A stretch of DNA of 64,000 nt, taken from NCBI GenBank assembly GCA_027263115.1, contig GCA_027263115.1_3656.1, one strand, 5' to 3'. Position numbers and translations under genes: made by a program. The stretch comes from a phage. Of the stretch, positions 6,526 through 55,649 are shown piece after piece. Position 1 is the stretch's first letter; the number at the start of each line of letters is the position of its first letter. The notes beneath the pieces were generated by a model that was not told the origin of the DNA, did no database searches, and was given only the letters and a program-made list of their open reading frames with translations.

Positions 6526-6553
6526 CGCCCCGCCATTGTGCGGGGCTTTTTAT
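6526..6553 (+). terminator. rho-independent terminator
   Basis: GCCCCG-loop-CGGGGC hairpin followed by TTTTTATTT. Confidence 0.6.
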
Positions 6554-6727: not shown

Positions 6728-6762
6728 AACCACATCAAAGCAAGAAGGAAGGAGTAAACGCC

Positions 6763-7032
6763 ATGCGTAAATTAAAAAATTTTGATAAAGTTGATATTGT
6801 CCTGAATAATTTTTACTACTGCAATAACAAGGCCGTTTGGTGGCGTGATAGTTCCACCGATAAAGTCAAGGCGCGCTTTCTCCAGGGGCACTGGCAAGGC
6901 CGCCCAGTGATTAAAATCATGGGGCAATTGGTAGCGTTTAAAAATTGCCGCCGTGTTGATGACGTTGAAGAGATTTTAAACATTTTGCGCCACAATAATT
7001 TAAAAATAGTGTTGACAAGTAAATCTCAATAA
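6763..7032 (+). CDS. hypothetical protein
   Basis: 89 aa, SD GGAAGGAG. Confidence 0.55.
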   Translation: MRKLKNFDKVDIVLNNFYYCNNKAVWWRDSSTDKVKARFLQGHWQGRPVIKIMGQLVAFKNCRRVDDVEEILNILRHNNLKIVLTSKSQ

Positions 7033-7039
7033 GTATAAT
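7012..7039 (+). promoter_or_regulatory. sigma70-type promoter TTGACA-N16-TATAAT
   Basis: Consensus hexamers, then leader hairpin GGCGG...CCGCC. Confidence 0.55.
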
Positions 7040-7096
7040 TAAAAACACAGGCGGGAAAACTTACCGCCACTAACAAAGAAAACAGGAGAAAATATC

Positions 7097-7720: not shown

Positions 7721-7728
7721 ATAAAGTG

Positions 7729-7756
7729 TTGCAATAATCTAAAAACCTGCTATATT
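7729..7756 (+). promoter_or_regulatory. promoter TTGCAA-N16-TATATT with leader hairpin
   Basis: Followed by GGGGCAA-loop-TTGCCCC hairpin and CA-rich leader. Confidence 0.45.
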
Positions 7757-7809
7757 AAAACTCAAGGGGGCAAGACGTTTGCCCCACACAAAACAAAGAG
7801 GAAAACATT

Positions 7810-8190
7810 ATGAAAAACACTACTAAAGCTATTGACACCGTTATGTTTAACCTGGTTACCTTTCGCGAGGATATGAAAGATCTTCCACGTGAAACAGTGT
7901 GCGATCACATTGAAAACTATCGCAAACTAATCAAAGAGTTGCCTTTAAAACGTGACCAGTATGCGGCTAACGCTATGCTCAACGCCATGATCAAAAAGAT
8001 GATTCAGTGTGATTTAACCCTGGCCTATGATTATGCAGGTGGTCGTTTTGCAGTATACAATCAGCCCGTGCCTGGTATGGGCACCACCGAAGAATTGCAC
8101 GCGCTCAATCTAAAACAAGACGTGTGGGATAGTATGCCCCGCGTGGTGGTGTGGGCAGAAAGCGGAAAGATTTACGGCGATAATTTTTAA
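7810..8190 (+). CDS. hypothetical protein
   Basis: 126 aa, SD AAGAGGAAAA. Confidence 0.6.
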   Translation: MKNTTKAIDTVMFNLVTFREDMKDLPRETVCDHIENYRKLIKELPLKRDQYAANAMLNAMIKKMIQCDLTLAYDYAGGRFAVYNQPVPGMGTTEELHALNLKQDVWDSMPRVVVWAESGKIYGDNF

Positions 8191-8200
8191 TCAGGTAACA

Positions 8201-8226
8201 GGCGGCATATTTGCCGCCTTATTGTT
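8201..8226 (+). terminator. rho-independent terminator
   Basis: GGCGGCA-loop-GCCGCC hairpin followed by TTATTGTT. Confidence 0.55.
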
Positions 8227-8254
8227 AAACAGAACTGCAAAAGAGGTACATAGA

Positions 8255-8626
8255 ATGGAATTTATTATTTTGGCCGTATTAGTTGCCTTGTTTAACGCCT
8301 GGATCGCTGGCAAGATGGGTAGATCCGCCTTTTTATGGTTTATTATATCTATTTTCCTGGGGGTGGTTTCAACTATTGTACTTGTTATCCTTGCAATTGT
8401 TGACAAAGGTGATAATAGAAAGGGTAAAGTATTTTCCGACCTGTATGACGCGCAAACATTTGTCAACGCCTATTATAGTGATCTTCCAGTCTCCCTACGC
8501 TGCAGCCTTGCACAACAGGTTTTCGATGAAGCTAAAACCAGAGATCACGCCCATGAGATTTGTTTAACTGAGGCGGATCGCCTATTTGAGAGGAATAGAA
8601 AATATGTGGGCCAGCCGTTTAAATAA
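8255..8626 (+). CDS. hypothetical membrane protein (two predicted TM helices)
   Basis: ATG after AAAGAGGTA (start trimmed from track ORF 8222). Confidence 0.55.
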   Translation: MEFIILAVLVALFNAWIAGKMGRSAFLWFIISIFLGVVSTIVLVILAIVDKGDNRKGKVFSDLYDAQTFVNAYYSDLPVSLRCSLAQQVFDEAKTRDHAHEICLTEADRLFERNRKYVGQPFK

Positions 8627-8849
8627 TACCACGTTAATTAATCCCTTTGATGAAGATTTGAAGCCAGCCGCCTGGCGTGATGGATTCAATAACGAACGCT
8701 TTATTTTCAGGCCTGATCTTAAGGAATTTTATAACAATGGATCGAACAACGACAGAGATAATTTTTCTTGTGATGTGCGTGGTGATGGTACTCCTGGGGG
8801 CCATTGTAAACCACGTCACTACTACCAGGATGAAAGGGGGAGACGATGA
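8604..8849 (+). CDS. hypothetical protein
   Basis: ATG after GAGAGGAATAG, overlaps previous gene by 23 nt. Confidence 0.4.
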   Translation: MWASRLNNTTLINPFDEDLKPAAWRDGFNNERFIFRPDLKEFYNNGSNNDRDNFSCDVRGDGTPGGHCKPRHYYQDERGRR

Positions 8850-8965
8850 CAACCAAGGATAAGCCCCGCACCGATAAGGTGCGCCGGGTTATGGTATGGC
8901 TTGAGATCATCGCCCTTGAAATATTGTTAGGCGTAGGGATGTATTTTATCGCTGTAAGTAACTGA
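8846..8965 (+). CDS. small hydrophobic peptide (39 aa)
   Basis: ATGA overlap with previous stop, SD GGGGGAG, single TM-like helix. Confidence 0.4.
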   Translation: MTTKDKPRTDKVRRVMVWLEIIALEILLGVGMYFIAVSN

Positions 8966-8969
8966 TAAC

Positions 8970-9012
8970 GGCCCCCGATCCCTGGGGGCCTAACTTTTTA
9001 AAATTTTTTTTC
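8970..9012 (+). terminator. rho-independent terminator
   Basis: GGCCCCC-loop-GGGGGCC hairpin followed by long T-rich run. Confidence 0.6.
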
Positions 9013-9022
9013 TCCCTGAGTG

Positions 9023-9052
9023 TTGCAATCCGATCCAGAATATGGATAATAA
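9023..9052 (+). promoter_or_regulatory. promoter-like TTGCAA-N18-TAATAA
   Basis: Shares ATATGGATAATAA core with the 10186 promoter; followed by leader hairpin. Confidence 0.4.
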
Positions 9053-9106
9053 TAATCAACGGGGAGCTAATCCCCACCAACACAAAAACCAGAAAGGAGA
9101 AACAAA

Positions 9107-9307
9107 ATGAGCAACAATATCCGCGTTATTAACTTCAAAAAAGAAGAAAAAATTGCCGTGCTGATTGACGGTCAAGAAATCTTCAAGGGCTATTATGAAG
9201 ATCATCAAACGGCGATTAGTATCACTCGCGTGATTGGTTACCATAATTTTTACCCCCAAGGCGCTGAGGCGGCGGTTAAACGAATCAAAGAGATTGTAGG
9301 CCTGTAA
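9107..9307 (+). CDS. hypothetical protein
   Basis: 66 aa, SD AAAGGAGAAA. Confidence 0.55.
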   Translation: MSNNIRVINFKKEEKIAVLIDGQEIFKGYYEDHQTAISITRVIGYHNFYPQGAEAAVKRIKEIVGL

Positions 9308-9309
9308 AA

Positions 9310-9355
9310 TTTATTTTTAGATGGCCTTGACTTCAGGGCCATCAATAAAGTAAAT
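9310..9355. repeat. 46-bp intergenic repeat element, copy 3
   Basis: Two mismatches relative to copies 1 and 2. Confidence 0.65.
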
Positions 9356-9391
9356 TTAAACCCTGTTAAAAGACCACGCAGTTAACAAGGA

Positions 9392-9700
9392 GTGATAGAC
9401 ATGTTTATCCAGGCTAATAATCTTTATTTCTTTGATGGTCAGATCGTAGATGGTGTGGAAGTGGAGATCACCGGGTGCCCTGGCGGTCAGGCTATGACTT
9501 TTCGGAATAATGCCTTTGATGATTCTCATATCGTTATGAGAATGGAAGTTACGAAGCTGGACGACAAGAAAACACTTATTGACTATTCTGTGAAAGATCA
9601 TCCAGACTACCACATGATCTATGGTGATTTGTGCGTTGTTGACCGTGACAAGGTGGGCGGCATTGTGATCGCTATTGTGAACGATGTTTTCTCAAACTAA
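9392..9700 (+). CDS. hypothetical protein
   Basis: 102 aa, SD AAGGAG. Confidence 0.6.
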   Translation: MIDMFIQANNLYFFDGQIVDGVEVEITGCPGGQAMTFRNNAFDDSHIVMRMEVTKLDDKKTLIDYSVKDHPDYHMIYGDLCVVDRDKVGGIVIAIVNDVFSN

Positions 9701-9717
9701 TTTCAGCAGGTGATTTT

Positions 9718-10068
9718 ATGAAAATAAAACTATATTACCTTAATGAGCTTAACCCCCTTGCCCAGGTCCGCGCCATAGCTAATACCTTGATTTGTGAGAA
9801 ATCTGTATATTGTGTTGAGCTTAACGCCATGCGTGAACGTCTCAAAGGTGGTTACTTTGACATCCATACTGCAATCAACGGCCTGAATATGGAATTTATA
9901 CGCTTACGTAACAGCCGCTGGAATCTGGCAAGAATGGAACAAGATCCGGCCTACCTTCGTAAGCTGGTTATTGAAAATCATCTGATGTTTAATGCCGAGG
10001 GTGATTATTACCATTTTCACCGCAGACGCTGGTACCGTGGCGGCAATACAGGCAAGAATGCAAAATAA
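9718..10068 (+). CDS. hypothetical protein
   Basis: 116 aa ORF following previous gene. Confidence 0.5.
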   Translation: MKIKLYYLNELNPLAQVRAIANTLICEKSVYCVELNAMRERLKGGYFDIHTAINGLNMEFIRLRNSRWNLARMEQDPAYLRKLVIENHLMFNAEGDYYHFHRRRWYRGGNTGKNAK

Positions 10069-10103
10069 GGCCCCTAGCAGGGCCTGCAGCAATATAATCA
10101 CAT

Positions 10104-10137
10104 AAAGGCCATGCAACCGCATGGCCTTTATTATTTT
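10104..10137 (+). terminator. rho-independent terminator
   Basis: 11-bp stem AAAGGCCATGC/GCATGGCCTTT, then ATTATTTTGG. Confidence 0.65.
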
Positions 10138-10185
10138 GGCGTTACAACGGCATACGGGGCGCTTAAAAAATTTTTAAAGAAGTAC

Positions 10186-10215
10186 TTGCATCATTCCCGA
10201 CAATATGGATAATAA
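10186..10215 (+). promoter_or_regulatory. promoter-like TTGCAT-N18-TAATAA
   Basis: Paralog of the 9023 promoter, followed by GGGGG/CCCCC hairpin. Confidence 0.4.
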
Positions 10216-10270
10216 GAGTTGTCGAGGGGGAGGCCCCCAATCGTTGACCAGATAGATAGGAGTTAAAATC

Positions 10271-10555
10271 ATGGCTATTGTTACCGCTGGCGATGTAGTA
10301 GAAATGGAAGCAAAATACTTAAAAGCGGGTATGCACATCCTACGGAATGATCAAGAGTTATTATTAACGATGGTTGACTATAATCCCGGCCAGGATTATC
10401 CAAGCATCGACTACTTTTTTGAGTATGTTGATGAAGAGTTGAAAGAGGATGAGGCATATTGCGGTGAGTTCTGCAACTTCTTTTGTCCTGATGAGGTTGT
10501 AAAGGTTATTTATCAACCTGGCGTACCTTTCCCACTGCACGCTATCAATAAATAA
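10271..10555 (+). CDS. hypothetical protein
   Basis: 94 aa, SD TAGGAG. Confidence 0.6.
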   Translation: MAIVTAGDVVEMEAKYLKAGMHILRNDQELLLTMVDYNPGQDYPSIDYFFEYVDEELKEDEAYCGEFCNFFCPDEVVKVIYQPGVPFPLHAINK

Positions 10556-10609
10556 ACCTGGCGGGGCCGAAAAGGCCCCAATTATGAAAATAAAGAGAGG
10601 TAAATCATC

Positions 10610-10843
10610 ATGATGGAACAAATTAAACGCGCTGAGGCTATTAATGGCAATGTGATCTATTTTGTCAGCAAAAACGAAAAAGGCGTACCATATGCGGCGG
10701 TAATAGTACAACCTGACGGCGATTATTGGTTTACTGTGTACGGCGCTTATTCTTTTGGGCGTCCAGTGCATGATAAAATTTTGAAAGTAGCGAACCCTAC
10801 CGGGAAGAATATCACAGCAGAAAAATTTTTTGAAAATAGTTGA
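10610..10843 (+). CDS. hypothetical protein
   Basis: 77 aa, SD AGAGAGGTAAA. Confidence 0.55.
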   Translation: MMEQIKRAEAINGNVIYFVSKNEKGVPYAAVIVQPDGDYWFTVYGAYSFGRPVHDKILKVANPTGKNITAEKFFENS

Positions 10844-10867
10844 CATGACCATATAAGACTGTAATAT
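10840..10867 (+). promoter_or_regulatory. sigma70-type promoter TTGACA-N16-TAATAT
   Basis: Hexamers then leader hairpin GGGGC/GCCCC. Confidence 0.5.
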
Positions 10868-10918
10868 ATAAATCAAAGGGGGCAACAAGCCCCACCAACC
10901 ACAAAGAGGATAAAAATC

Positions 10919-11098
10919 ATGGCTATTATTGCAAAGACTGAGATCGTAGGCTTAGATTCTATTCTACTCGCATATGAGGAAGCTATAGAAATGTATGTGG
11001 TTTCCTACGGTGAATATATCCGTGAATATAAATCTATTGATCTAGCTTTTGAATGTTATATTCGCCAGGTCAATAAAGCATATGATGATTATCGTTAA
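10919..11098 (+). CDS. small hypothetical protein (59 aa)
   Basis: ATG after AAGAGGATAAAAA; below track cutoff. Confidence 0.5.
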   Translation: MAIIAKTEIVGLDSILLAYEEAIEMYVVSYGEYIREYKSIDLAFECYIRQVNKAYDDYR

Positions 11099-11189
11099 AA
11101 TAGTTTGACAACAAACAACCATCTAACAAAGCATAATACATAAGGTGGTAGAATGATCCGCCACCTGGAACAAAGAAGAGGTAAACACC

Positions 11190-11435
11190 ATGAAAAGCAA
11201 TAAAGGTTATAACGGTTACAAAAACAAAACTCATTGGAATGTAAGCCTTTGGATTAATAACGATGAGTCATTGTACCGGTTGGCCCAAGGCTTTATTAAC
11301 GCCAATGCTAATCGTAATGATGCGGCGCGGGATATGATGCTTTTTCTGGAGCTAACCGGACAAGATAAGACCCCGGACGGCTTCAAGTACAGCACTACGG
11401 CGATCCGTGCCGCGATGGTTGGAATGAAACACTAA
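11190..11435 (+). CDS. hypothetical protein
   Basis: 81 aa, SD AAGAGGTAAA; preceded by GGTGG...CCACC leader hairpin. Confidence 0.55.
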   Translation: MKSNKGYNGYKNKTHWNVSLWINNDESLYRLAQGFINANANRNDAARDMMLFLELTGQDKTPDGFKYSTTAIRAAMVGMKH

Positions 11436-11512
11436 AAGCATATAGCCGCCTTACCCTGGGGCCGCTGCTACGGCCCCATGAATAAGGTTACTAACAGAAG
11501 AGAATAAACACC

Positions 11513-11617
11513 ATGAAACAAAAATTAATTGATGCTGTGATCCTGGTTATTGCCTTAGGTATTGGCCTGATTGCAACCATGGCTAATGTGATCTTGTCTT
11601 CCAACGGTATCGGGTGA
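11513..11617 (+). CDS. small hydrophobic peptide (34 aa)
   Basis: ATG after leader hairpin and AGAAGAGAATAAA; TM-like; shares SSNGI motif with the 5034 peptide. Confidence 0.4.
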   Translation: MKQKLIDAVILVIALGIGLIATMANVILSSNGIG

Positions 11618-11626
11618 GGTTGACAA

Positions 11627-11842
11627 ATGATCACTAACAAAACAGGAAAAACAGAATTTTTACGCAACTTACAGATCGGCAAGCCTGAGATCTGGCATTG
11701 CACTAAAACACCACGTGACGAAATGAAAGACTTCACCGCCACGCTGCAACGGGTAAAGATATCCATCACGCAGAAAAAGGCCTTGCTAGTGGTGGAAGGT
11801 GAGATCCCCCAAACCGTTGTTATAGTTGAGCGTACAGCATAG
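11627..11842 (+). CDS. hypothetical protein
   Basis: 71 aa, weak SD GAGGT. Confidence 0.45.
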   Translation: MITNKTGKTEFLRNLQIGKPEIWHCTKTPRDEMKDFTATLQRVKISITQKKALLVVEGEIPQTVVIVERTA

Positions 11843-11933
11843 TTTAATTTATAGAGATACCTGAAAATTAACCAATAAAGCATAAACAGGCGGTTACCGC
11901 CGCCTTAAACGTAGCAGAAAGAGGATAGACACA

Positions 11934-12218
11934 ATGAAAAAGATGATCGCAGTGGTTGCCCTAGTTGTTGGACTTAATGCGCCTGTAATGGCTAAAGAGC
12001 TGGCAAAAGAGGTTAATCTAACGGATATTCATGCCGTCAATCAAATCGGGGTTACTTATCGCTTATGCCTTGCCGCTAAAACTTTTAATGACGGCACAAC
12101 AGAGTACTACGGATTCGAGGGTATCCGGTGCGGTGAGCTTGCTCGCGACCTTAAGGAAGATCCAGATCTGGAAGATCTACCCATCACCGTAAACGGTAAA
12201 GCTTACGTAAACCGTTAA
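11934..12218 (+). CDS. secreted/periplasmic small protein
   Basis: 94 aa, SD AAGAGGA; N-terminal signal-peptide-like MKKMIAVVALVVGLNAPVMA. Confidence 0.6.
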   Translation: MKKMIAVVALVVGLNAPVMAKELAKEVNLTDIHAVNQIGVTYRLCLAAKTFNDGTTEYYGFEGIRCGELARDLKEDPDLEDLPITVNGKAYVNR

Positions 12219-12220
12219 CC

Positions 12221-12355
12221 ATGAGAAAGATAATCATCACCTTGGGGATTGTGGTAGCAATACTGGCGCTCTTTCCCCTTATGGTTAGGTATGTGCTGAT
12301 CAGTGTTGTCCTGATAGTCAGCGATCTATTGGAAACGGTTGGCACCTTGTTTTAA
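12221..12355 (+). CDS. small hydrophobic peptide (44 aa)
   Basis: Starts 3 nt after previous stop, no clear SD, strongly hydrophobic. Confidence 0.3.
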   Translation: MRKIIITLGIVVAILALFPLMVRYVLISVVLIVSDLLETVGTLF

Positions 12356-12368
12356 AGAGCGATAAAAA

Positions 12369-12560
12369 ATGAATATCGAACAAGTTAGAAAGGTATTAGC
12401 GGTACTGCGTTATCATAATCATAGAAAGGTCATAGACGATCCTGATTATGTTGATTCAAGTCTAGAAGAGGATACACTACAAGCCATAAGTAACATGCAA
12501 GAATTGCTAAAGCGCATGACAGAGAAAAACAGACCGGACTACATAGGCGAAAAAATATAA
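12369..12560 (+). CDS. hypothetical protein
   Basis: 63 aa ORF in gene array. Confidence 0.5.
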   Translation: MNIEQVRKVLAVLRYHNHRKVIDDPDYVDSSLEEDTLQAISNMQELLKRMTEKNRPDYIGEKI

Positions 12561-12577
12561 TATTTATAAACTACAAA

Positions 12578-12607
12578 ACAGGGCTTGCAATGGCCCTGTT
12601 TTTGTTA
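12578..12607 (+). terminator. rho-independent terminator
   Basis: ACAGGGC-loop-GCCCTGT hairpin followed by TTTTTGTT. Confidence 0.65.
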
Positions 12608-12687
12608 TACTTATTCTACGGCAGGCACCTGGCGACGGGGGGAGACAATCACCGGGCCTGCCTGTCATACAAGAACTATAAAAACCG

Positions 12688-12716
12688 TTGACATCTGCCA
12701 TGGGGTGGGGTAACAT
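12688..12716 (+). promoter_or_regulatory. promoter TTGACA-N17-TAACAT
   Basis: Followed by GGGCA/TGCCC hairpin and CA-rich leader. Confidence 0.45.
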
Positions 12717-12770
12717 TTATCTTGAAGGGGCAAAAGTGCCCACACAACAACCAGGAGAGAGGAAAACATT

Positions 12771-13043
12771 ATGTCAAGCTGGATTAATCAAGAAGTCGAA
12801 TCACGTTTTAATGCTATATGGGATCTCATCGAAAAAGAGGACGGAACATCAAGCCCCTACCTCAACAATTTGGAATTCCATTTTGTGGAAGCGATGAACG
12901 CAGAACATGATCACGAAGGTGGCGCGGATGAGTTCGCTAAAGGTTATGGCTTTAACAATGCCAACGAAATGATCGAGGCGGTTGTACTCCAGGCTGAGGA
13001 AGATTATCAATTAAAAACGCTTGAATTCTGCCGCCGTAAGTAA
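12771..13043 (+). CDS. acidic hypothetical protein
   Basis: 90 aa, SD AGGAGAGAGG. Confidence 0.6.
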   Translation: MSSWINQEVESRFNAIWDLIEKEDGTSSPYLNNLEFHFVEAMNAEHDHEGGADEFAKGYGFNNANEMIEAVVLQAEEDYQLKTLEFCRRK

Positions 13044-13103
13044 TAAGATAATGACACGGGCCAAAAGGCCCACTAATCAGAACCACACAAAGGGAGAAAG
13101 AAA

Positions 13104-13322
13104 ATGACAACCCGTAAAATTAAAGTTGTTTGCATTGAATCGACTGGGGGCGCTTTTGTAGTTGGTCAGGAATATAATGCGGTTTTAATGGGTACGGATT
13201 GGAAGGTTAAAGGCCTTAATGGTTACGAGTACGGCACTACTTGCGGCTTGCGTGGTCGAATCGGATACGTGAGTTTAGACAATAAAGAAAAATTTGTTTT
13301 CGACACCCTTGTGAGTAAATAG
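13104..13322 (+). CDS. hypothetical protein
   Basis: 72 aa, SD AAGGGAGAAAG; preceded by GGGCC/GGCCC hairpin. Confidence 0.55.
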   Translation: MTTRKIKVVCIESTGGAFVVGQEYNAVLMGTDWKVKGLNGYEYGTTCGLRGRIGYVSLDNKEKFVFDTLVSK

Positions 13323-13400
13323 CATGAATTGCTAAAGACTGATCTGCGAACTGCTGTATTATCAACTAATCAAAACGAACCACATAAAGAGGTAAACATC

Positions 13401-13664
13401 ATGAAACGTCTTGATCAGCTCAAACTAGTTCAGTACATGGCCTACAGAATTCTTGAAGTCCAAAAAGGTAGCAAAAAAGAGGTTTGCGAGAAAGCTTATA
13501 AGATCTTTACCCGCAAAAAAGATGACTGGATGCTACGCCAGACCAAAAAGGCTGACATCTTGGGGTACCTGGAAGAAGAGATCCGCCTTGAAGAGCAAGA
13601 AGAGATCCGCCGCAGTGAAGCAGATTATCAGGCAGCTTGGGAAAACTGGATGAATAACAAATAA
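13401..13664 (+). CDS. hypothetical protein
   Basis: ATG after AAGAGGTAAA (start trimmed from track ORF 13329); Lys/Glu-rich. Confidence 0.5.
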   Translation: MKRLDQLKLVQYMAYRILEVQKGSKKEVCEKAYKIFTRKKDDWMLRQTKKADILGYLEEEIRLEEQEEIRRSEADYQAAWENWMNNK

Positions 13665-13728
13665 TACAACAAGTTACGGTCAGGGGGCAATAAAGCCCCT
13701 TGATCACATAAAAATTATGCTATCCTTA

Positions 13729-13757
13729 TTGACAAGGATCGGCAGTTTTGCTATATT
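13729..13757 (+). promoter_or_regulatory. sigma70-type promoter TTGACA-N17-TATATT
   Basis: Hexamers upstream of ORF 13807. Confidence 0.5.
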
Positions 13758-13806
13758 CTTTTTTAAAGGGAAGTTGTAAGAAAATTAACTAAGAGGTAAA
13801 AACACC

Positions 13807-14226
13807 ATGAACATTAAATCTAATAATCCGGCATATAGCTTTGATAACGCTTTTTGTCACGGTCCGGCGGCGAAAGGATTCGAAATCGATGGTAAACTAA
13901 TTATTGTCAATGTTGACGGGGAAGAGGTTGCAGTATATCCGGTGGCAGACGTAAAAAGCCGTTTACAATGCCGCATTGATGTTACCGCCTATCAGCTTGA
14001 TCCGGTCCGCATAGTTGCCCTGGTCCTGGAAGAAGAAATTAAAGCCATGCACCATAGCAACAGGTTTATTGGTGACGCTCAGGATAATATGAAGGTGTGC
14101 CGCCATAAAGTTAATGAAGTGCTTAAAGAGTACGGCTATAAAGATCTTATGATCAAACGTGATGAAAAATTCCGGTACCGTAACGACCTGGCAAATCGAA
14201 TCTATGAAATATACGAATCATTATAA
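13807..14226 (+). CDS. hypothetical protein
   Basis: 139 aa, SD AAGAGGTAAAAA; last gene of rightward early array. Confidence 0.6.
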   Translation: MNIKSNNPAYSFDNAFCHGPAAKGFEIDGKLIIVNVDGEEVAVYPVADVKSRLQCRIDVTAYQLDPVRIVALVLEEEIKAMHHSNRFIGDAQDNMKVCRHKVNEVLKEYGYKDLMIKRDEKFRYRNDLANRIYEIYESL

Positions 14227-14244
14227 TTTTTTAACTGAATTATC

Positions 14245-14270
14245 AAGGGGCTTAGGCCCCTTTCTTTTTG
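14245..14270 (+). terminator. rho-independent terminator closing the early array
   Basis: AAGGGGC-loop-GCCCCTT hairpin followed by TCTTTTTG. Confidence 0.65.
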
Positions 14271-14877
14271 TCTGATCTTCCCCCTACCATAAACGGCCCT
14301 ACCTGGCAAGTGGAATAATTGACGAGCCATCAACCCCACACACTGTACAAATATACATGTAAAATAACTATTGCATAACTTTTCATTGTGTGGTAGCAGG
14401 GCTATTTTTACCCGTTTTTCCTTCCAAAATTGCACGTAATGCAGCTATTGCACAAAATTTAACCTGATGCATATCTTCAGTGTCTTGTCAACAACTAAAA
14501 ATCTTTATAAGTCATGCACTTACATAACCACAAAAGCGTGCTCTACGTGAAAAATCGAGTATAACTATAGCCGCCAGATCTCAGAATTTACGTACGCTCA
14601 CCATTCTATAGTCTGCTAAGTATTTATTCCAACCATAGAATAACGGAATAGTCAATACCTGCATAAAATAATTATTCGTGTAAACTGCATAACATAAATC
14701 AGCTTAGGTGTCAACATTTTTCGTAAACAGTCTGAAATTATCACGATGAGTTATCATAAACAGAGAAATCTTTAGTCGTCTAATGTTTACTGTACGTTAC
14801 TATACTAACTGAAATCATTAGATGACTAATAGAAAGATAAGAAATAATTAACAATACAATTATTTTATCTGTAACAA

Positions 14878-15165
14878 TAAGGCAACTATGCAAACGAATG
14901 GCATGGCGCGACGGAGTCGCGACATAATATAAAAGCAGTAACCATCACCCCCGTGATAGTTTGTCTGCAATCTATTAATCAGATCATAGTTGCCTTGTAT
15001 TTAGTTAATCATGACATAACAAGCAAGGCAACTATAGATCTGCTAATAGTTGCCCTGCTTTTATATTATGTCATAGGAACGCCCGAAGGGGTGACCTAGT
15101 CACCTGGCATAGCCAGCGAAAGATTATTAACTTGGTAATAGTTATCATGCAAACGAATGGCATGG
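14878..15165. repeat. nested palindromic region: 18-bp inverted repeat (about 14921-14938 vs 15055-15072), 19-bp direct repeat ATGCAAACGAATGGCATGG x2, AGGCAACTAT/ATAGTTGCC inverted copies
   Basis: Reverse complements and direct copies read directly in the sequence; no ORF with a ribosome-binding site. Confidence 0.65.
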
Positions 15166-15179
15166 CTTATCATCTCTGT

Positions 15180-15420
15180 GTAAACAGTCAATCATGTAAA
15201 CTATTAGATATGTAAACAGTAAAGGGCGTGAACAGTAAGCGAGGGAATAGTAATAGCGTGAATAGTGACAGCGTAAACAGTGACAGCGTAAACAGTCAGG
15301 CATGTCAATTATGTCATATTGTGTCACCATTATGTCACTATTGTGTCACCAGTATGCCCAGTATGTCAATTGAGTCTAAAGTGTCAAAGGTGTCAGACAA
15401 GTTTTTCTCCTCTTTGTCAA
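15180..15420. repeat. tandem short-repeat arrays (GTAAACAGT family incl. 15-mer TGACAGCGTAAACAG x2; then 22-bp TTATGTCAYTATTGTGTCACCA x2 with further TGTCA units)
   Basis: Direct reading; track ORFs here are low-complexity artefacts of the repeats. Confidence 0.7.
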
Positions 15421-16866
15421 GTGCTGCATGAAAAATTTACAAGCTTGTATGGTAGCATTTTTGCGGCCCGTTTACATTCAGTGATGTATGTATAACCCTT
15501 GTTGTGTGGGAGTTTAGACGTCTAGACGGTTGGAAGTCTGCAGGTCAATATCTAATCTATCGGCTGCTAACTATATCCCACACAAATAGTAAGAAATATA
15601 ATTGTTATATGTGTAAACAGTAACTCATGTTATCAATCCCTGTATGGATCGCCAGTGGTGCGCATAATGGGTATTATGTTAAATTGCCCGTAATGATAAC
15701 AGTTCTCACAATGATAGGTATTCTCATTCATCCACACAAAATAGGTTGCAAATGTTGTGCCACTGTGTGAACGGCCTGGCCTATTAATTTCTCTCACTGC
15801 CTCGATATTTGAGGATTGTTATAAGAATGAGAAGTATTCCCATTCCGTCCGCCTGGCAGCGCTCCTGTAGGTCCTGCAAGGACTCTAGCTGAAAGCTAGA
15901 CCCTTCGGGCCTCCCTGTAGGTCAGGTCAAAATCGTGGCAGAACTGAGCCTGTTCAGATATTTCTGGCTGACTCTTCAGGTCTGTGTGGGAAAAGCCAAC
16001 CTCTCCGGCGGGGCAGGGGAGGGAGGTAAATTAAAAAATTTACGTGGTGTATGAAGCGCTCTTCAGGTAAGGCAGGTATTATGTGATGAAACCCTCTTCA
16101 GGCAATGATATTTGTGGGTGTGATATTTGCTGGAAAGCCAGATATGACGGGACTCCCGGCGGGGCAGGGGTAGTACAGACGGGGGAAATATGGGGATGTA
16201 GTTGGGGAAATTGATCAGGCAGGTAGAGTATGGAATATGTTACAAGTATGTTAAATATGGAGGTTGAATATCTGTAGGATTTGTGTGTAAAATCAAAGAC
16301 TTAAGTGGTGTTGTGGTATTTTCTATAAATAATTCAAGTTTAATAGGTAATATTTGCCTCTATCCACTTTGTGTGGTAAACAGATTCAGATGAGATTAGT
16401 TTACAAGTGTATACATAATATACAAATTAAAGATACAAGAAACCCCCCTCCCCCCTTCGGCTACCATTCACCTTTTCCTCTGACTGGTACTTAAACACTT
16501 ATTCAGACTCTTCAGGTTATCACCCATATATCATATGGCAGTGACTGGTGTCCTCCGGCCCCTCTTTCGTCACCCGTCCGCTTCGCCATGCTAATGCCAT
16601 AGCTAATGGTTCGGTTGTTCACCCTGTTCACTCAGGTGTATCTCTATACCCCTTCAAACCGAAGAGAACAGAAAACCCGAATTACTCGGTAAAAGAAAAG
16701 AGAAGAACTTAATTTTATCAGGATAGGCAAGAATGTCAAGGCATGACTGCTCACTAAACAAGCAAACAGTCATGTGTGGGAGGTAAGTGATTGTGGTGGT
16801 AGGAAATTTAGTTGAAAGATGTGTTATAGGTGCTTCCAGCACTTTAGCCGGGCAGCTAATTGTGTG

Positions 16867-17082
16867 TCAGTCCAGCGGTTCATCCTCTACTTCACTGAAA
16901 TCAATGTTCATGGTCTCTTCCCAACCATCGATCTCAGCACAAGAGTGGAGTTCTTTAGGGTTTACTCCCAAAGCCTCAGCAACAGAGTCTATATTTAACA
17001 CCTCTGGCAGGTATGATTCATCGAATTCAAGGTAAATCAGGCCACGAGTGTTGTCAGCTCCACCAAATATCTCTATCTTCAT
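16867..17082 (-). CDS. hypothetical protein (distal end of leftward block)
   Basis: 71 aa, ATG preceded by GAGGAG on minus strand; N-terminus MKIEI like several upstream paralogs. Confidence 0.5.
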   Translation of the reverse strand: MKIEIFGGADNTRGLIYLEFDESYLPEVLNIDSVAEALGVNPKELHSCAEIDGWEETMNIDFSEVEDEPLD

Positions 17083-17203
17083 AAAATCTCCTCTGGGAAT
17101 GAAAGTGTGAACAGGGTTTTATACGTTCTAATGCACAGGAATTATACACGTTTGCCTCTTCAGGCCATGCTTTAGCATGAGGAACCTGTGTGGGCTCGGT
17201 GCT

Positions 17204-17416
17204 TCATAGTCTACCACCTCTGAACTCTTCGTGCTCAGGCATAATAGAGAACCAGATATCTACGATGTCCTCCCACGTCAGGTCATCAGCCTCAGGATCT
17301 GTCTGGGACGAAGATGAAGAGTCCTCAGAATCTAAGTTTTCCTCTTTAACTGGCTCATCCAAGGGACATATGGTCACTCCTTCGGATGTCTCTTCAGATG
17401 CATGTGTGTTGATCAT
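17204..17416 (-). CDS. small acidic hypothetical protein
   Basis: 70 aa, weak SD GGGTGG; very Asp/Glu/Ser-rich. Confidence 0.4.
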   Translation of the reverse strand: MINTHASEETSEGVTICPLDEPVKEENLDSEDSSSSSQTDPEADDLTWEDIVDIWFSIMPEHEEFRGGRL

Positions 17417-17776
17417 GTTCCACCCGTGAGTATTCCGGCAACAGCCGCTATGGAAGTAATGATCATCAGGATCACCACTAAAACTTCAGACAATGTTCTC
17501 ATTGTGTATTCCATATTCTCCAAACTGTGTGTGGATACTATCACGGGAGCGGTAATGTGTCAACAGCAACGCCGCGAGGGTTTGGTTAAAATCCGAGCGT
17601 ATGGTGATTTGGGTCAAAACGGACGTGCGTTCTCGCTACGCTCGAAAGAGAGACTTGTTTGTAGAAAGCTCTTAAACGCTCTGTAACGAGATTATCTGTC
17701 CAAGGTATGCAATCGTGCACCAGATAAAGAAAAGGACGCCACAGAGCGTCCTAGGTGTCTTAAATTTGATATTTTG

Positions 17777-18088
17777 CTATACCCATGATGGCTTATCAAG
17801 GTTGGAGTAGCTGAAAGGTGTCAAAAGGTGACTGTCAAAATCTCTCAAACTATCCAGATCTTTTTCCTCGTCCTGACACCATCTGTGCCTGCATTTATTG
17901 TTGTAGTGCATAGAATGCATGGCGTTCTGCAACTTAACAGGCACAAGTGATTCCGGAGTAGATAGTATTGTTGGGTATGCCAGAACCACCTCAAACAGTG
18001 GAAACACATCGAAACTAAAATCTACCTCTGCAGAGGTTGATGGCATGTAGGAGTATTTAGCCGTCTTTGTAGACATAATCCACCTCAC
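17777..18088 (-). CDS. hypothetical protein
   Basis: 103 aa, ATGA coupling with upstream gene. Confidence 0.5.
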   Translation of the reverse strand: MRWIMSTKTAKYSYMPSTSAEVDFSFDVFPLFEVVLAYPTILSTPESLVPVKLQNAMHSMHYNNKCRHRWCQDEEKDLDSLRDFDSHLLTPFSYSNLDKPSWV

Positions 18089-18411
18089 ACAGGTTTGATA
18101 ATACCTTTACCGAATAATTCTTCGTATCTAATCTTATCCGGATCCCACTCTTGGATAATTTCGAAGACAATATCCAACCCAGGGATAATCACTTCTCCAG
18201 TGTCAAGTTTGGCAAGAACAAAACCAGAAGGCTGAATGGTTTCCCAGTTGCGCCGATTGGAATAGAAGACCTCGAAAATATCGCCGACCTTTATCTGTTG
18301 ATCAAGATGTTCAAGATTCTCTTTCATATAGACGCAGCGGATTTTTCGTGCAGGCCATAGACCACCTGCATCACGTTCATTTAGCTCTTTTACAGTAATC
18401 GGTATACCCAT
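18085..18411 (-). CDS. hypothetical protein
   Basis: 108 aa in tiled leftward array. Confidence 0.55.
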   Translation of the reverse strand: MGIPITVKELNERDAGGLWPARKIRCVYMKENLEHLDQQIKVGDIFEVFYSNRRNWETIQPSGFVLAKLDTGEVIIPGLDIVFEIIQEWDPDKIRYEELFGKGIIKPV

Positions 18412-18433
18412 CTCAAATCTCCTTCATAGATAG

Positions 18434-18464
18434 TAAAAAGAGGGGCCCAAGCCCCCCCTCTTTG
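18434..18464 (-). terminator. hairpin terminator (G/C-rich stem, T-run on minus strand)
   Basis: AGAGGGGG...CCCCTCT stem between genes 18468..18773 and 18085..18411. Confidence 0.5.
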
Positions 18465-18467
18465 TCA

Positions 18468-18773
18468 TTATTCTACAGAGCGTTTGAACAGAATGTCTGC
18501 CTCAGACATGTGCTCAACCTCTTCTTCGATTTTAGCGCGACGTTTTTCAGCCTCATAGCGAATATCGAACTCGGTAGCCACCAGAGATTTGATGAATTTA
18601 GGAGAATACAGGTGATCCTGCTTCTCAACGAGAATGATATCCTTAATGGCATCTTTCAGATCTTTAATCTGAAGTTGGAGTTCTACCAGTTCTTCGATTG
18701 TTTTGCGAAGGCGATCACGCTCTGCAGTGTCAGAAGGAAGAGAGGTGAACAGTTCAACTTTAGATTTAGCCAT
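18468..18773 (-). CDS. hypothetical protein
   Basis: 101 aa, coiled-coil-like, tiled array. Confidence 0.55.
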   Translation of the reverse strand: MAKSKVELFTSLPSDTAERDRLRKTIEELVELQLQIKDLKDAIKDIILVEKQDHLYSPKFIKSLVATEFDIRYEAEKRRAKIEEEVEHMSEADILFKRSVE

Positions 18774-52343: not shown

Positions 52344-52694
52344 TCAGTAGATGTTTTGTTTAATCTCTATTCCAAACTTTTTAAACGAGTCAGCTGCAAG
52401 CATGAATTTACGAGCCGCTGATGGATTAGAAGTATGCACGAAAATCTTCACGTTGTCAACTACAGGAGGCTTACCAAATACAAATTTTTCCTCTAACATG
52501 CAGAAACAGTCGTACCCTTCGAAGACTTCTCCTAAATCGCTGTCAAAATGCCACTCAGAAACGCGCCTGTAGAGCTTTCTATTATCGTTAATAAAATCCA
52601 TGAACTCAGAAGAGTTCTTCAGCCAAAGAGCATCTTGGATTCCGTAATTTGACGGATCTCTCAAGTCATCCAGCCACACAATCAACTTCTTCAT
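52344..52694 (-). CDS. hypothetical protein
   Basis: Internal ATG (MKKLIVW) with ATGA coupling to upstream gene. Confidence 0.5.
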   Translation of the reverse strand: MKKLIVWLDDLRDPSNYGIQDALWLKNSSEFMDFINDNRKLYRRVSEWHFDSDLGEVFEGYDCFCMLEEKFVFGKPPVVDNVKIFVHTSNPSAARKFMLAADSFKKFGIEIKQNIY

Positions 52695-53608
52695 TGCATA
52701 TAGTCCTCGTTGTGAAAATAGCAATCAAGTATCTCACGGCGTTCCTGCTCCAGGAGGCAGTTCCACACATCTTCTGTGTAATTGCTACGAATGAAGTTTA
52801 CCATTCCGTAAAACTCTTCGTCAATACGTTTAAAGATATCATCATCCCAAATCTTCCAAGCTTTACCCCTCATTACGGCCTTCCGTGCCAAATAGTATGG
52901 AGACTTGATCTTCAGCTGCAGGTCATAAGGGTAGTAAGGCTTACGGATCATATACCCTTCGCCCATTGTTTCTGCAGCTAATTCTTTTGCATAGCTGAAC
53001 GGGATTTCACGCACAGTGTGAGGACGTTTTGCACCAAGGTATTTGGCAATCCCATCTAAAGCTGCTTCTGGTAGCATTATTCCAGAATCATTATATCTGC
53101 AACCTATCAAATATGCGCCATGGTCTTCTTGAACAATATGCGGATCTGAAGGGTGACAAATTTCAAACATGAATGTCATGTTTTCATTGCCCATAACCTT
53201 CTTGATAAGATCTAAATTACCACATTGCTCCCTGATGGTTTCTTTTGCGAGGTTACAATATGGGGAATCAAGAGACCCGGTTGTTGAGAACAATAGTTCA
53301 CCTTTATGAGATGATACCACACCGAGGAATCCGTTCTTTTTCTCTACCGCAGTAACAAGTTTACTGTCCGGTAGGTTGGTGGAGTTTTCTCCTAAGTTGA
53401 ATACTTTTGTGAAAGGCCATGCCACAACATTCCCCTCATTGCCAACAACAATACCTCGGCACTCCAGTAAACGCGGAGACAAATGCCACAGATCGTTGTA
53501 GAATACTTTTCTGGCATATTTATAGATCTTTAATCCAAGATCTGGATAATACCGACTGGTTACAAGACCTTTGTCTACTAGGTCATCTGCATTAAAATAC
53601 TTCATCAT
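52691..53608 (-). CDS. RNA ligase (Rnl2-like nucleotidyltransferase)
   Basis: Motif I KKNGF, motif IV EGYMIRK, motif V LKIKS; first ATG at 53626 lacks SD, ATG pair at 53608/53605 follows GAGGAA. Confidence 0.65.
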   Translation of the reverse strand: MMKYFNADDLVDKGLVTSRYYPDLGLKIYKYARKVFYNDLWHLSPRLLECRGIVVGNEGNVVAWPFTKVFNLGENSTNLPDSKLVTAVEKKNGFLGVVSSHKGELLFSTTGSLDSPYCNLAKETIREQCGNLDLIKKVMGNENMTFMFEICHPSDPHIVQEDHGAYLIGCRYNDSGIMLPEAALDGIAKYLGAKRPHTVREIPFSYAKELAAETMGEGYMIRKPYYPYDLQLKIKSPYYLARKAVMRGKAWKIWDDDIFKRIDEEFYGMVNFIRSNYTEDVWNCLLEQERREILDCYFHNEDYMQ

Positions 53609-53669
53609 ACGTTCCTCATTTGTCATTTTGTCAGTCTATCCTGCCACACAAATAACCTAGTGTCAACAC

Positions 53670-53698
53670 TTGAAATTAACAAAACAGTTAGGTATACT
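53670..53698 (+). promoter_or_regulatory. sigma70-type promoter TTGAAA-N17-TATACT
   Basis: In the 100-bp divergent region, upstream of the kinase gene. Confidence 0.5.
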
Positions 53699-53726
53699 AT
53701 CATTAAAATTAAAACGGAGGATTGCT

Positions 53727-54050
53727 ATGTCTAAAATGCTATATATCGTGCGTGGTCTGCCAGGGTCTGGCAAATCAACACTGGCAAATGCGCTATCTTT
53801 AGAAGGTCTGTATCCACATTTTGAGAATGACATGTTTTGGTATGACGATGACGGCAATTACAACTGGGATGCAAGTAAAGTAACACTCGCAGCAAAATGG
53901 TGCAAAGATAACGTAGAAGATATGATGCGTATGGGATACGACCGTATCGTGGTTGAAAACCGCCACGGTAATAAAAGCATTCATGATGTTCCAGACAAGG
54001 TTGTGGATCGTATGGAACGCCAGCTTAAAAACTGCATTAAACTTAAATGA
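53727..54050 (+). CDS. polynucleotide kinase-like P-loop kinase (T4 Pnk kinase-domain-like)
   Basis: 107 aa; N-terminus MLYIVRGLPGSGKSTLA parallels the T4 Pnk kinase P-loop; SD ACGGAGGA. Confidence 0.7.
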   Translation: MSKMLYIVRGLPGSGKSTLANALSLEGLYPHFENDMFWYDDDGNYNWDASKVTLAAKWCKDNVEDMMRMGYDRIVVENRHGNKSIHDVPDKVVDRMERQLKNCIKLK

Positions 54051-54057
54051 GGAATGT

Positions 54058-54612
54058 ATGAAATACTTTGTAACAAGCGATACGCACTTTCTCCACCAGC
54101 GGGTCATGGAGTTTGATTCATGTCAAAAACACAGATCTCAATATGATCACAATCTTGACAGTATGAATGCGGGAATCATCACCGAGTGGAACTCCGTTGT
54201 GTCACCTGCAGACACTGTGTTCCACCTGGGAGATATTGCGTGCACTAATGATAAGAATATCAACAACTTACTTCCAGATATTCTAAATATGTTGAACGGA
54301 CATATTATTCTTGTTCGTGGCAACCATGACACAAGGACGACTGTCAGAATTATGAAAGAGTTCGGTCATGAGGTTGTAGATTATTACGAGCTTCGCCACA
54401 ACAAGAATTTGATCTGTATGAGCCATTACCAGTTTGCAAAGTGGAACAGAAAGCCTCACGGATCAGTCCAACTGTTCGGTCATGCTCACGGAACCACACA
54501 ACAGTTGTTTGGCAGGCAGCTTGATGTCGGTTGGGATGTGTGGGGGAGACTCTTACCATTAGAAGAGGCATACCGTATTGCAATGAGTTTTGATATTGAC
54601 AGCAGGGAGTAA
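54058..54612 (+). CDS. calcineurin-like metallophosphoesterase
   Basis: 184 aa; motifs SDTHF, GDIA, GNHD; SD GAGGAA. Confidence 0.75.
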   Translation: MKYFVTSDTHFLHQRVMEFDSCQKHRSQYDHNLDSMNAGIITEWNSVVSPADTVFHLGDIACTNDKNINNLLPDILNMLNGHIILVRGNHDTRTTVRIMKEFGHEVVDYYELRHNKNLICMSHYQFAKWNRKPHGSVQLFGHAHGTTQQLFGRQLDVGWDVWGRLLPLEEAYRIAMSFDIDSRE

Positions 54613-54659
54613 TCCCTGCTATTTTAAAGAAAATTGCCACACAAGGAGAATCAGGAGAT

Positions 54660-55010
54660 ATGAAAGATGGGGATAAGCTGCTATATCTTAAAGTCCCCCT
54701 TGAAATACTATCTATGTCAAAAGTTTTGAATGACACAACTGGGGAGGTTGTTGTTCTTGACTTGTATGACAAGATTGTATACTGCTACCTGCACAACTGG
54801 TATAAGCTTGGAGGAAATTCCCGCTTCACACCAAGCACAAGGAAAATTGCAGCAGATGTTGGGATAAAGAAAACAAAAGCAGCAGCGTGCGTTAAAACTT
54901 TAGAATGTGCAGGAGTGGTTGAAACATCCACACAAGGGAGAGGTAAAAGATGCACATTTTCCAAAGTTTTGCCACCAGAAGAAGTTATTCGAATGTCAAC
55001 AACTGGTTAG
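54660..55010 (+). CDS. putative winged-helix DNA-binding protein
   Basis: 116 aa; SD AAGGAG; HTH-like TRKIAADVGIKKTKAAACVKTLECAGVVE; iteron array directly downstream. Confidence 0.5.
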   Translation: MKDGDKLLYLKVPLEILSMSKVLNDTTGEVVVLDLYDKIVYCYLHNWYKLGGNSRFTPSTRKIAADVGIKKTKAAACVKTLECAGVVETSTQGRGKRCTFSKVLPPEEVIRMSTTG

Positions 55011-55083
55011 ACCAGTAAAAACTTAAATATCTGTACTATAAGGGTTTGTATGTTTTATGTTCACCATGGAACAGAAACTATTA

Positions 55084-55167
55084 ACTGTCCGTGATACGGA
55101 CACCACTGTCCGTCACGCGGACACATCTGCCCGTAATACGGACACTAACTGTCCGTGATACGGACAC
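55084..55167. repeat. four tandem 21-bp palindromic iterons (core GTCCGTnAYRCGGACAC)
   Basis: Each unit carries GTCCG/CGGAC inverted half-sites; followed by AT-rich palindromic DNA. Confidence 0.75.
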
Positions 55168-55649
55168 ATAAAGAATATAACTAAAATAACTAAATAATAA
55201 AAAATAAAAGATCTAGTACTTATGGTACTAAGTACATATACTTAACTTATGTAGAATATACTAGATCCTAAGTACCATGTTTTAAATTTATTACTTTCTA
55301 TAGGTAGTGTCGGCCCTTCATTGGCACTCGCCTACGAGGGGCGAGATGCCGGGCCTCCATAGTGCACACATGCAGGTCTGTTAACATGTGTGGGAGCGAA
55401 GCGGCGCAGGCCAAAGGCCGAGCACTAATGTGGACCACCGACGAAAGCTTGCCAGCGCCGTAAGGAGTCGGTTGAGAGCCTCCCGCGCGAGTTTGGATAA
55501 AGTTTATGTGTGGAAACGGACAATGAGGCCCCTAAATCGCTCCACAGCCATATAAACTATACCAAGTAAGGCAATCGCACCAGTTTGATAGAAAAGCTCG
55601 TTACAAAGCGATACAGCGAGTTTTTCTATAACTTGAAGAGGAGGCAGCT

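Follow-up and report, generated by a model that had tools for sequence, protein, structure and literature searches.

The heptamer TGTGTGG is concentrated in repeat-rich non-coding DNA around the inferred genome ends of an rV5-like phage

The window analyzed here is a 64,000-nt stretch of phage DNA (contig GCA_027263115.1_3656.1 of NCBI GenBank assembly GCA_027263115.1), and the element under study is the heptamer TGTGTGG (CCACACA on the complementary strand), which is crowded into the part of the window where two converging gene units meet. The last gene of the plus-strand unit ends at position 14226 and that of the minus-strand unit at 16867; the 2,640 bp between them contain no conserved open reading frame (ORF). 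The surrounding sequence (14200-17600) matches 122 phage records (87-96% identity), nearly all of which belong to Vequintavirus, the rV5-like E. coli myophages (some of the records are mislabelled 'Campylobacter phage'), and the orientation of the window is the reverse of that of rV5 (NC_011041). In the rV5 map, genes 163 and 164 flank the counterpart of the gene-free region, a grey 'non-coding' box to which the accessible portion of the article assigns no function; its authors also did not find an intrinsic terminator for one of the two converging units, the minus-strand one (Kropinski 2013, PMC3606486). A first-pass annotation, made from the sequence alone, had described the whole 3-kb stretch carrying the motif as non-coding. 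This holds for the gene-free region, but the right-hand 670 bp (16867-17537) carry small conserved minus-strand genes and are hence not non-coding.

The boundaries of related genome records point to a direct terminal repeat within this region. The record of phage EdH4 ends at the equivalent of window position 15396 and starts at that of 15853, its first and last 459 bp being exact duplicates; the record of 'Aya' starts at 15396 and that of bov22_2 at 15853. 'Short terminal redundancies of 458 bp' were reported in EdH4 and HdK5 (Korf 2019, PMC6563267), and the announcement of LL12 places a 459-bp terminal redundancy in the non-coding region between convergent transcripts (PMC6658697), i.e. at the locus of the rV5 box. 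On the strength of the shared boundaries, the EdH4 duplication and the published lengths, we infer that the 458 bp between these positions form the terminal repeat, and that the non-coding stretch is a chromosome-end region in which the repeat is flanked by a right arm of 1.17 kb and a left arm of 1.0 kb. During replication such a virion-end region is the concatemer junction. The setting of the main motif cluster is chromosome-end DNA and not a promoter zone. The non-coding box and the terminal redundancy within it are already published; TGTGTGG, its two clusters, its polarity, its recurrence in Seunavirus and the other repeat families go unmentioned in the accessible portions of the three articles.

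The heptamer occurs 30 times in the window, compared with 8.09 ± 3.00 times in dinucleotide-preserving shuffles, none of which (0/100) reached 30. In the gene-free region there are eight copies against 0.45 ± 0.65 (1000 shuffles of the stretch, maximum 3), and the family-wise chance of any 7-mer reaching eight copies there is P = 0.006. The proposed enrichment over a dinucleotide-shuffled background and in non-coding DNA was thus confirmed. The cluster is more than a (TG)n tract, because the eight cores compare with only 11 occurrences of the hexamer CACACA/TGTGTG in the region, which makes the seventh base specific. Other words are even more locally specific, e.g. CTGTTTAC, with seven copies in the region and one elsewhere.

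The first-pass annotation had given the motif as the 10-mer YTGTGTGG(G/T)A, with at least ten copies in the stretch. Ten exact copies of the 7-mer core do lie within 14336-17534 (two in the 1.1 kb to the left of the repeat, three inside it, three in the 1 kb to its right and two more in the next 0.7 kb), but the 10-mer, although over-represented (six sites in the window; 0.56 expected), fits only five of the ten sites listed. The site placed at 16112 is a variant (TTTGTGGGTGTG), and that placed at 16782 is ATGTGTGGGA at 16772, misplaced by 10 nt. The sites given as 15730 (reverse complement), 17186, 17525, 53643 and 55508 exist, but with broken flanking positions, and the copy at 14336 had been missed. 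The further copies near 53.6 and 55.4-55.5 kb are also real and belong to a second dense cluster, although the one assigned to 55393 is ATGTGTGGGA at 55386, with its first position broken. When 17 non-coding copies were aligned (±45 nt), the flanking positions outside the seven core bases contained no information.

On the scale of 3-kb windows, only two parts of the 64 kb are dense in the heptamer, one at 13.5-18 kb with 7-8 copies and the other at 52.5-55.5 kb with 8. In the related genome of EdH4, the 75 kb that remain (15-90 kb) hold 25 copies (0.33 per kb), with no more than three in any 3-kb window. The crowding of the heptamer in non-coding DNA is real but heterogeneous, and at least two populations of copies are mixed. 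The features discussed are listed in the table, in which the retention of individual copies refers to 16 relatives (17 sequences, including L148, a metagenomic contig of 80-85% identity).

Table. Coordinates of the heptamer copies and other features of the window
Feature	Position	Strand	Basis or remark
Gene-free region	14227..16866	none	2,640 bp between converging units; no conserved ORF
Inferred direct terminal repeat (virion DNA ends)	15396..15853	none	458 bp; record boundaries and literature
Motif copy, right-arm non-coding DNA	14336..14342	-	kept in 10/16
Motif copy (TTGTGTGGTA)	14387..14393	+	kept in 15/16
Motif copy inside terminal repeat (TTGTGTGGGA)	15503..15509	+	kept in 15/16
Motif copy in terminal repeat, right arm of inverted pair	15578..15584	-	kept in 11/16
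Motif copy inside terminal repeat, variable within genus	15732..15738	-	kept in 2/16
Motif copy in left-arm module CTCTTCAGG-TC-TGTGTGGG-AAAAGCC...CCGGCGGGGCAGGGG	15983..15989	+	kept in 16/16
Variant copy (TGTGGGTGTG), core mismatch, in duplicated module 16094-16170	16112..16121	+	sequence
Motif copy fused to iteron-like word GTAAACAG (TTTGTGTGGTAAACAG)	16370..16376	+	kept in 13/16
Motif copy about 90 nt past stop of last minus-strand gene	16773..16779	+	kept in 14/16
Motif copy, spacer between two small minus-strand genes	17187..17193	+	exact core
Motif copy at promoter P162, overlapping near-DnaA-box string	17528..17534	+	sequence
Three leader copies (7784, 12740, 13083)	7784..13089	-	plus (sense) strand reads CCACACAA, 5' of ribosome-binding site
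Second cluster, nine copies	52674..55513	both	around divergent promoter region and non-coding 55011-55649
Gene of 116-aa HTH_36/DUF6945 protein	54660..55010		followed by four iterons
Four 19-bp palindromic iterons CTGYCCGT-N4-CGGACAC	55085-55103, 55106-55124, 55127-55145, 55149-55167
AT-rich stretch	~55168-55295
GC-rich island	55296-55575		two motif copies
GTRAAYAGT array	15180..15296	+	7 copies
RTGTCA array	15302..15395	+	8 copies, ~11-bp phase; ends exactly at left repeat boundary

The copies are polar with respect to the chromosome ends. To the left of 14.36 kb (7784-14336) the four exact copies all occupy the minus strand, and the six between 15983 and 20997 all occupy the plus strand, so that 5'-TGTGTGG-3' is directed outward on either side of the centre. 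The exceptions are the copy at 14387, which is on the plus strand, and the terminal repeat itself, with one plus and two minus copies. The pentamer TGTGT is also biased in strand across 14227-17600 (22 plus vs 3 minus).

Some of the copies are arranged in pairs. Those at 14336 and 14387 form a divergent pair with an AT-rich spacer of 44 bp, and the copies at 15503 and 15578 are the left and the right arm (15576-15585), respectively, of a 10-nt inverted pair, 64 bp apart. Pairing of the latter two as an RNA or DNA stem was rejected, since the A-to-C changes found at 15578 in three genomes are uncompensated at 15503. Between them lies AGACGTCTAGACG (15516-15528), a perfect met-box with the first five bases of a tandem second one, whose full 8-mer (AGACGGTT) matches at six of eight positions; this sequence resembles a MetJ operator. 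The variable copy at 15732 is retained in contig L148 despite diverged flanks.

Comparison across genera provided stronger evidence than conservation within the genus. In the Salmonella phage PVP-SE1 (Seunavirus), the same converging junction contains a 2.27-kb gene-free region for which BLAST gives no alignment to the window. CACACAA is the top 7-mer of that region (seven copies vs 0.60 ± 0.78; any-7-mer P = 0.049), TGTGTGG occurs three times (0.42 expected; P = 0.009), and six of the seven copies have the same outward polarity. The two regions have several short blocks in common: CCTGAAGAGTC, a C-rich block and, at the 15732 copy, TTTTGTGTGG ... ATTTAACATAATAC. Conservation of the individual copies is only weak. 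For the five plus-strand copies, a subset chosen post hoc, mean retention is 14.6 of the 16 relatives (background 10.4; P = 0.04). At the equivalent junction of Cronobacter phage CR3 (Certrevirus, of the same subfamily), the related word TGTGGGAA occurs four times. Schickermooser, a Phapecoctavirus, shares the last gene (90% amino-acid identity) and carries a terminal repeat of 329 bp. A scan of IMG/VR with CCACACA-N(0-30)-CCTGAAGWG gave unrelated chance matches only, which were left out (L023-L102), and one with an 18-mer from the ultraconserved part of the region gave nine contigs, two of them useful.

The second cluster comprises copies at 52674-, 52763-, 53644-, 54494-, 54537+, 54637-, 54928-, 55387+ and 55507+ (sign indicating strand); five of the nine are in coding DNA, and eight lie within 52501-55500. 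Its 640-bp non-coding stretch resembles a replication origin: the gene of the HTH_36/DUF6945 protein is followed by the palindromic iterons, the AT-rich stretch and the GC-rich island, and the locus (54660-55649) coincides with the minimum of the cumulative GC skew. The island had no Rfam match, and its folding z-scores were weak (-0.97 and -2.14). In PVP-SE1 the same layout is found 3' of an annotated 'replication initiation protein' (L022 35560-36112), with a copy of TGTGTGTGG in the island.

A different population is found in the early-gene leaders. The copies at 7784, 12740 and 13083, and also that at 54637, read CCACACAA on the sense strand, 3-12 nt 5' of a Shine-Dalgarno sequence. At 7740-7810, 12700-12770 and 13040-13105 the leaders have one design, consisting of a sigma-70-like promoter, a 5' GC hairpin, CACACAA and the Shine-Dalgarno sequence (the copy at 12740 being downstream of the published promoter P168), which suggests that early mRNAs may be stabilised by the 5' hairpin. 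Within positions -45 to -1 of 124 ORFs, CACACA (7 vs 2.4), ACACAA (8 vs 2.3) and CACAAA (9 vs 1.9) are enriched on the sense strand, mostly in the early block 1-14226. Only this subset has the character of a C/A-rich mRNA leader, the copies in the gene-free region being without a downstream ribosome-binding site or ORF. The leader copies, including relaxed CACACAA ones, are explained more simply as a C/A-rich unstructured leader element, and pooling them with the chromosome-end cluster is unwarranted.

For the main cluster we tentatively favour, at less than even chances, a loose, polar, homotypic cluster of weak DNA recognition words of low specificity. The TGTGTGG sites would be read by a protein or machine that operates both at the ends of the chromosome and at the 55-kb origin-like locus; candidate readers are the small subunit of terminase or an accessory end-processing or replication-initiation factor, and the process served may be end-processing, packaging or replication initiation. 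While the location, enrichment, polarity and recurrence in a second genus of the heptamer are observed, its binding by a protein, the identity of that protein and the process are what this reading would add to them. The binding site for a phage-encoded regulator proposed by the first-pass annotation comes close to this and is possible, but in chromosome-end and origin-like DNA rather than in transcription control. A DNA-level role is favoured over an RNA structure because Rfam gave no match to the cluster and folding of 15960-16465 revealed no convincing stability signal (z = -0.10 on the plus and +0.26 on the minus strand). The Rfam searches, at permissive thresholds in 13500-18500 (E ≤ 1) and 54900-55800 and at the gathering threshold in the whole window, returned tRNAs only, and a structured non-coding RNA was rejected on these two grounds.

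Several observations weigh against recognition of the heptamer by a DNA-binding protein. Seven bases without informative flanks make a short sequence for specific binding. Given the 6-mer frequencies, a maximal-order Markov model accounts for 26.9 of the 30 copies, so that the over-representation extends to the sub-words TGTGTG and GTGTGG. Among 15 Vequintavirus sequences (91-96% identical in the region), variable columns make up 38% of the motif and of the rest alike, and the number of copies ranges from 4 to 8 among the 15 genomes; the eight copies of the region are kept in a mean of 12.0 of the 16 relatives, compared with 10.4 for random 7-mers of the same region (P = 0.22). The junction of CR3 has one copy (0.14 expected) and that of Schickermooser none. 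CCACACA reads in the sense direction of the converging genes, so the outward polarity is confounded with the direction of transcription and alone cannot separate a DNA from an RNA reading. Finally, a candidate binding protein did not emerge from the neighbouring small proteins: Pfam searches with ten of them and a PDB sequence search with the 139-aa flanking protein gave no matches, and the label 'DNA translocase' in some records was rejected as unsupported.

Doubtful, though a real possibility, is a role of the word in RNA, where CCACACAA in the sense orientation would be a C/A-rich, G-free, unstructured stretch of transcript. In leaders, 5' of ribosome-binding sites, the word would promote translation or hold open the initiation region; in the arms, it would belong to rut-like tracts, C-rich and G-poor, on which Rho loads and which prevent transcription from reading through into the terminal repeat. 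This accords with the sense-only enrichment of CACACA, ACACAA and CACAAA in leaders, with the prevalence of CCACACA among the arm copies, in PVP-SE1 as in the window, when these are read along the sense strand of the nearest converging unit, and with the failure of the rV5 authors, mentioned above, to find an intrinsic terminator in the minus-strand unit. In addition, the copy at 16773 lies in a 61-nt run (16772-16832) directly 3' of the last gene that is C/A-rich and G-free in the minus-strand RNA and is a candidate Rho-loading site. However, the arm copies have no ribosome-binding sites or ORFs downstream, the copies of the GC-rich island (55.4-55.5 kb) and those at 52674 and 52763 read TGTGTGG in the sense strand, both orientations occur inside the terminal repeat, and a rut site, being a matter of composition, requires no fixed heptamer whose seventh base is specific.

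It is rather unlikely that the word has no dedicated function and is a by-product of GT-rich strand asymmetry, (TG)n slippage and module duplication in unconstrained DNA. The Markov prediction, the variable copy number and the evolution of the motif columns at the rate of the rest of the region, all given above, are as expected of such a residue, as is the strand bias of TGTGT, a pentamer that prefixes different repeats (e.g. TGTGTAAACAG and TGTGTCACC). Two of the sites are in a module, CTCTTCAGG ... TGTGTGGG ... CCGGCGGGGCAGGGG, that is present twice (15972-16019 and 16094-16170), and on this reading's own tally the word is absent from Schickermooser and from CR3, although the CR3 junction has a count of 1. 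On the other hand, the shuffles that leave so few copies in the gene-free region preserve strand composition and dinucleotides, G usually follows the hexamer, and most copies have no flanking similarity and are therefore not duplicates. The top 7-mer of the non-alignable PVP-SE1 region belongs to the same word, and only two clusters are found in ~136 kb, both at landmarks of DNA metabolism.

We consider it unlikely that the heptamer is, instead of a static operator, a polar DNA signal for a moving machine, serving either priming or loading or the methylase-gated cutting of ends. In one version, it would be a favoured lagging-strand-template word for the phage's own primase-helicase, which is like gp4 of T7, at forks leaving the chromosome ends and the 55-kb locus; the complementary primer would start with ACAC, by analogy with one T7 primer class. 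In another, it would form a cluster of target sites for one of the DNA methyltransferases of the phage, gating end-cutting in the manner of the Dam sites in P1 pac. If a moving machine does read it, TGTGTGG would be the phage equivalent of KOPS, Chi and similar skewed words of chromosomes.

A middle or late promoter element, as suggested by the first-pass annotation, or an operator of a transcription regulator is very improbable. Single copies do abut the -10 of P162, sit in the spacer of the RNA-ligase promoter and lie just downstream of P168. However, the asserted recurrence near promoters did not hold: only 5 of the 17 non-coding copies are within 60 nt of a sigma-70-like site scoring at least 10/12, non-coding positions drawn at random giving 3.93 ± 1.75 (P = 0.35), and the proportion in the gene-free region is 1/8. 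There is no fixed distance and no informative position around the copies, and the four promoter-adjacent ones have four different placements (after the -10 of P162, ~25 nt past that of P168, in the RNA-ligase spacer and upstream of P081). The main cluster has neither the spacing nor the downstream genes expected of such an element. The late motif published for rV5, TggTAaAAtA, is a different word (PMC3606486, accessible portion); in the window, the late-promoter word TGGTAAAATA is enriched (19 vs 7.1, one mismatch allowed) and does not coincide with TGTGTGG. The literature search found no transcription-start data for any Vequintavirus.

Recognition by host factors of the DnaA box, Chi (GCTGGTGG) or KOPS, the words that orient FtsK (GGGNAGGG), has been largely refuted by the sequence tests and is the least credible of these explanations. 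RecBCD reads Chi in one established polarity, and CCACACA on the 3'-ending strand at each end would be oriented in this way; four of the eight GGGNAGGG matches of the window are at 16011-16453; and TGTGGATAC at 17529 differs from the complement of a DnaA box by one mismatch, literally as the first-pass annotation had noted. This string, however, coincides with the -10 region and start of a published promoter, P162 (17563-17535), the minus-strand reading CCACACA following directly 3' of its -10 (TAGTAT). That annotation was right that most copies are not DnaA boxes: TTATNCACA occurs four times in the window (3.55 expected) and never in 14227-17600. Chi is found twice (1.9 expected), with no copy near the ends, KOPS is not enriched overall (8 vs 4.25, reached in 11/100 shuffles), and TGTGTGG fits the consensus of neither. 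Replication-origin iterons were likewise rejected, because the TGTGTGG copies are irregularly spaced (44-1100 bp apart) and in both orientations.

Repeat-rich non-coding DNA is a known feature of phage genome ends, and TGTGTGG is of this kind. It is close to the repeats flanking the terminal repetition of T7 and T3 and their packaging signals at concatemer junctions, reportedly described by Dunn and Studier (in 1983) and by Chung and Hinkle. In both cases a linear genome has a short, non-permuted direct terminal repeat, and a word of ~7 bp is present in many copies in the non-coding DNA on either side of it, in mirror orientation (with the exceptions and the confounding by gene direction already stated) and with an only suspected role in concatemer processing. 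Unlike the tandem T7/T3 repeats, the copies in the window are dispersed (50-1100 bp apart), some of them inside the repeat, and they also occur at the distant origin-like locus and in mRNA leaders; moreover, the polymerase and terminase systems of this phage are unrelated to those of T7.

The recognition sites of terminase small subunits (R1-R3 of lambda cosB, the hexamers of P1 pac, pacL/pacR of SPP1) are similar in that several short sites, some inverted with a spacer, lie near the cut, and the 15503/15578 pair within the repeat resembles them. Such sites are, however, 6-16 bp long and have defined spacing close to the cut, which the RTGTCA array fits better. The 'injection stop signal' region of the T5 terminal repeat is also gene-free end DNA on a kilobase scale with several families of direct and inverted repeats, but is located inside a 10-kb repeat and has DnaA boxes, in contrast to the 458-bp repeat without them found here. 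With Chi and KOPS the heptamer shares a short G-rich form and an orientation that flips at a landmark of replication or termination; it differs from them in sequence, its polarity is confounded with transcription, and its reader enzyme is hypothetical.

The rV5-like phages are common in typing and therapy cocktails, yet the packaging signals, origins and end-processing of these phages await characterisation. Should the word be functional, the map provides concrete sites: the terminal repeat, two repeat-rich arms, a polar heptamer shared with Seunavirus and the 55-kb locus. This matters for the engineering of rV5-like genomes, whose non-coding DNA is often presumed dispensable. If the word is a compositional residue, the practical conclusion is that 'genome terminus' would be the proper annotation of the 'non-coding box'.

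Other repeats of the chromosome-end region fit the pattern of iterons or terminase sites better than TGTGTGG does. Judged by their sequence, this applies to the GTRAAYAGT and RTGTCA arrays (15180-15395), and iteron-like spacing is also seen in the CTGYCCGT-N4-CGGACAC palindromes after the HTH_36 gene (55085-55167). The left boundary of the terminal repeat reads GTGTCA/GACAAG (the slash marking the boundary), and the RTGTCA array is a good candidate for a terminase recognition or cutting site. In the right arm, ATAGTTGCC is present in four copies of alternating orientation (14881-15054).

A Fur-box-like palindrome, AATGAT(N)ATTCTCATT, was found at 15690-15730 and 15818-15845 of the window and in the terminal non-coding DNA of four genera, a wider distribution than that of TGTGTGG. 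Further such sites are in L019/L020 (the Schickermooser repeat), in L022 (20893-20920 and ~22740) and in L144 (~6620-7225), and in CR3 ATGAGAAT occurs five times vs three times in 61 kb. The CR3 site GGGAATGATTATCATTATCCC matches by eye 15 of 16 positions of the E. coli Fur consensus. An idea that the 36-nt 'repeat_region' annotated in phage navn is a ToxI-like repeat was rejected, the feature being merely a local AATGATA...TTCTCA duplication.

In the left arm, the interval with half of the KOPS-like matches (16011-16453) also contains several G-runs, which could form G-quadruplexes, and an 11-12-nt G-run and its C-run complement (16016-16027 and 16442-16453) enclose 414 nt. The adjoining DNA (16450-16866) is ~100% identical in the 15 genomes, a conservation above that of the flanking genes. 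Its minus strand has a near-consensus promoter at 16739-16712 (TTGACA, 16-nt spacer, TGaTAAAAT), with a short hairpin and then a U-tract at 16689-16667, 3' of this promoter; together they are a candidate small RNA or attenuator.

In the tRNA cluster of the window, ARAGORN predicted a 99-nt tRNA at 57995-58093 with a four-base anticodon (atcc). Rfam also identified it as a tRNA (37.5 bits), and it may contain an intron or have an unusual anticodon loop.

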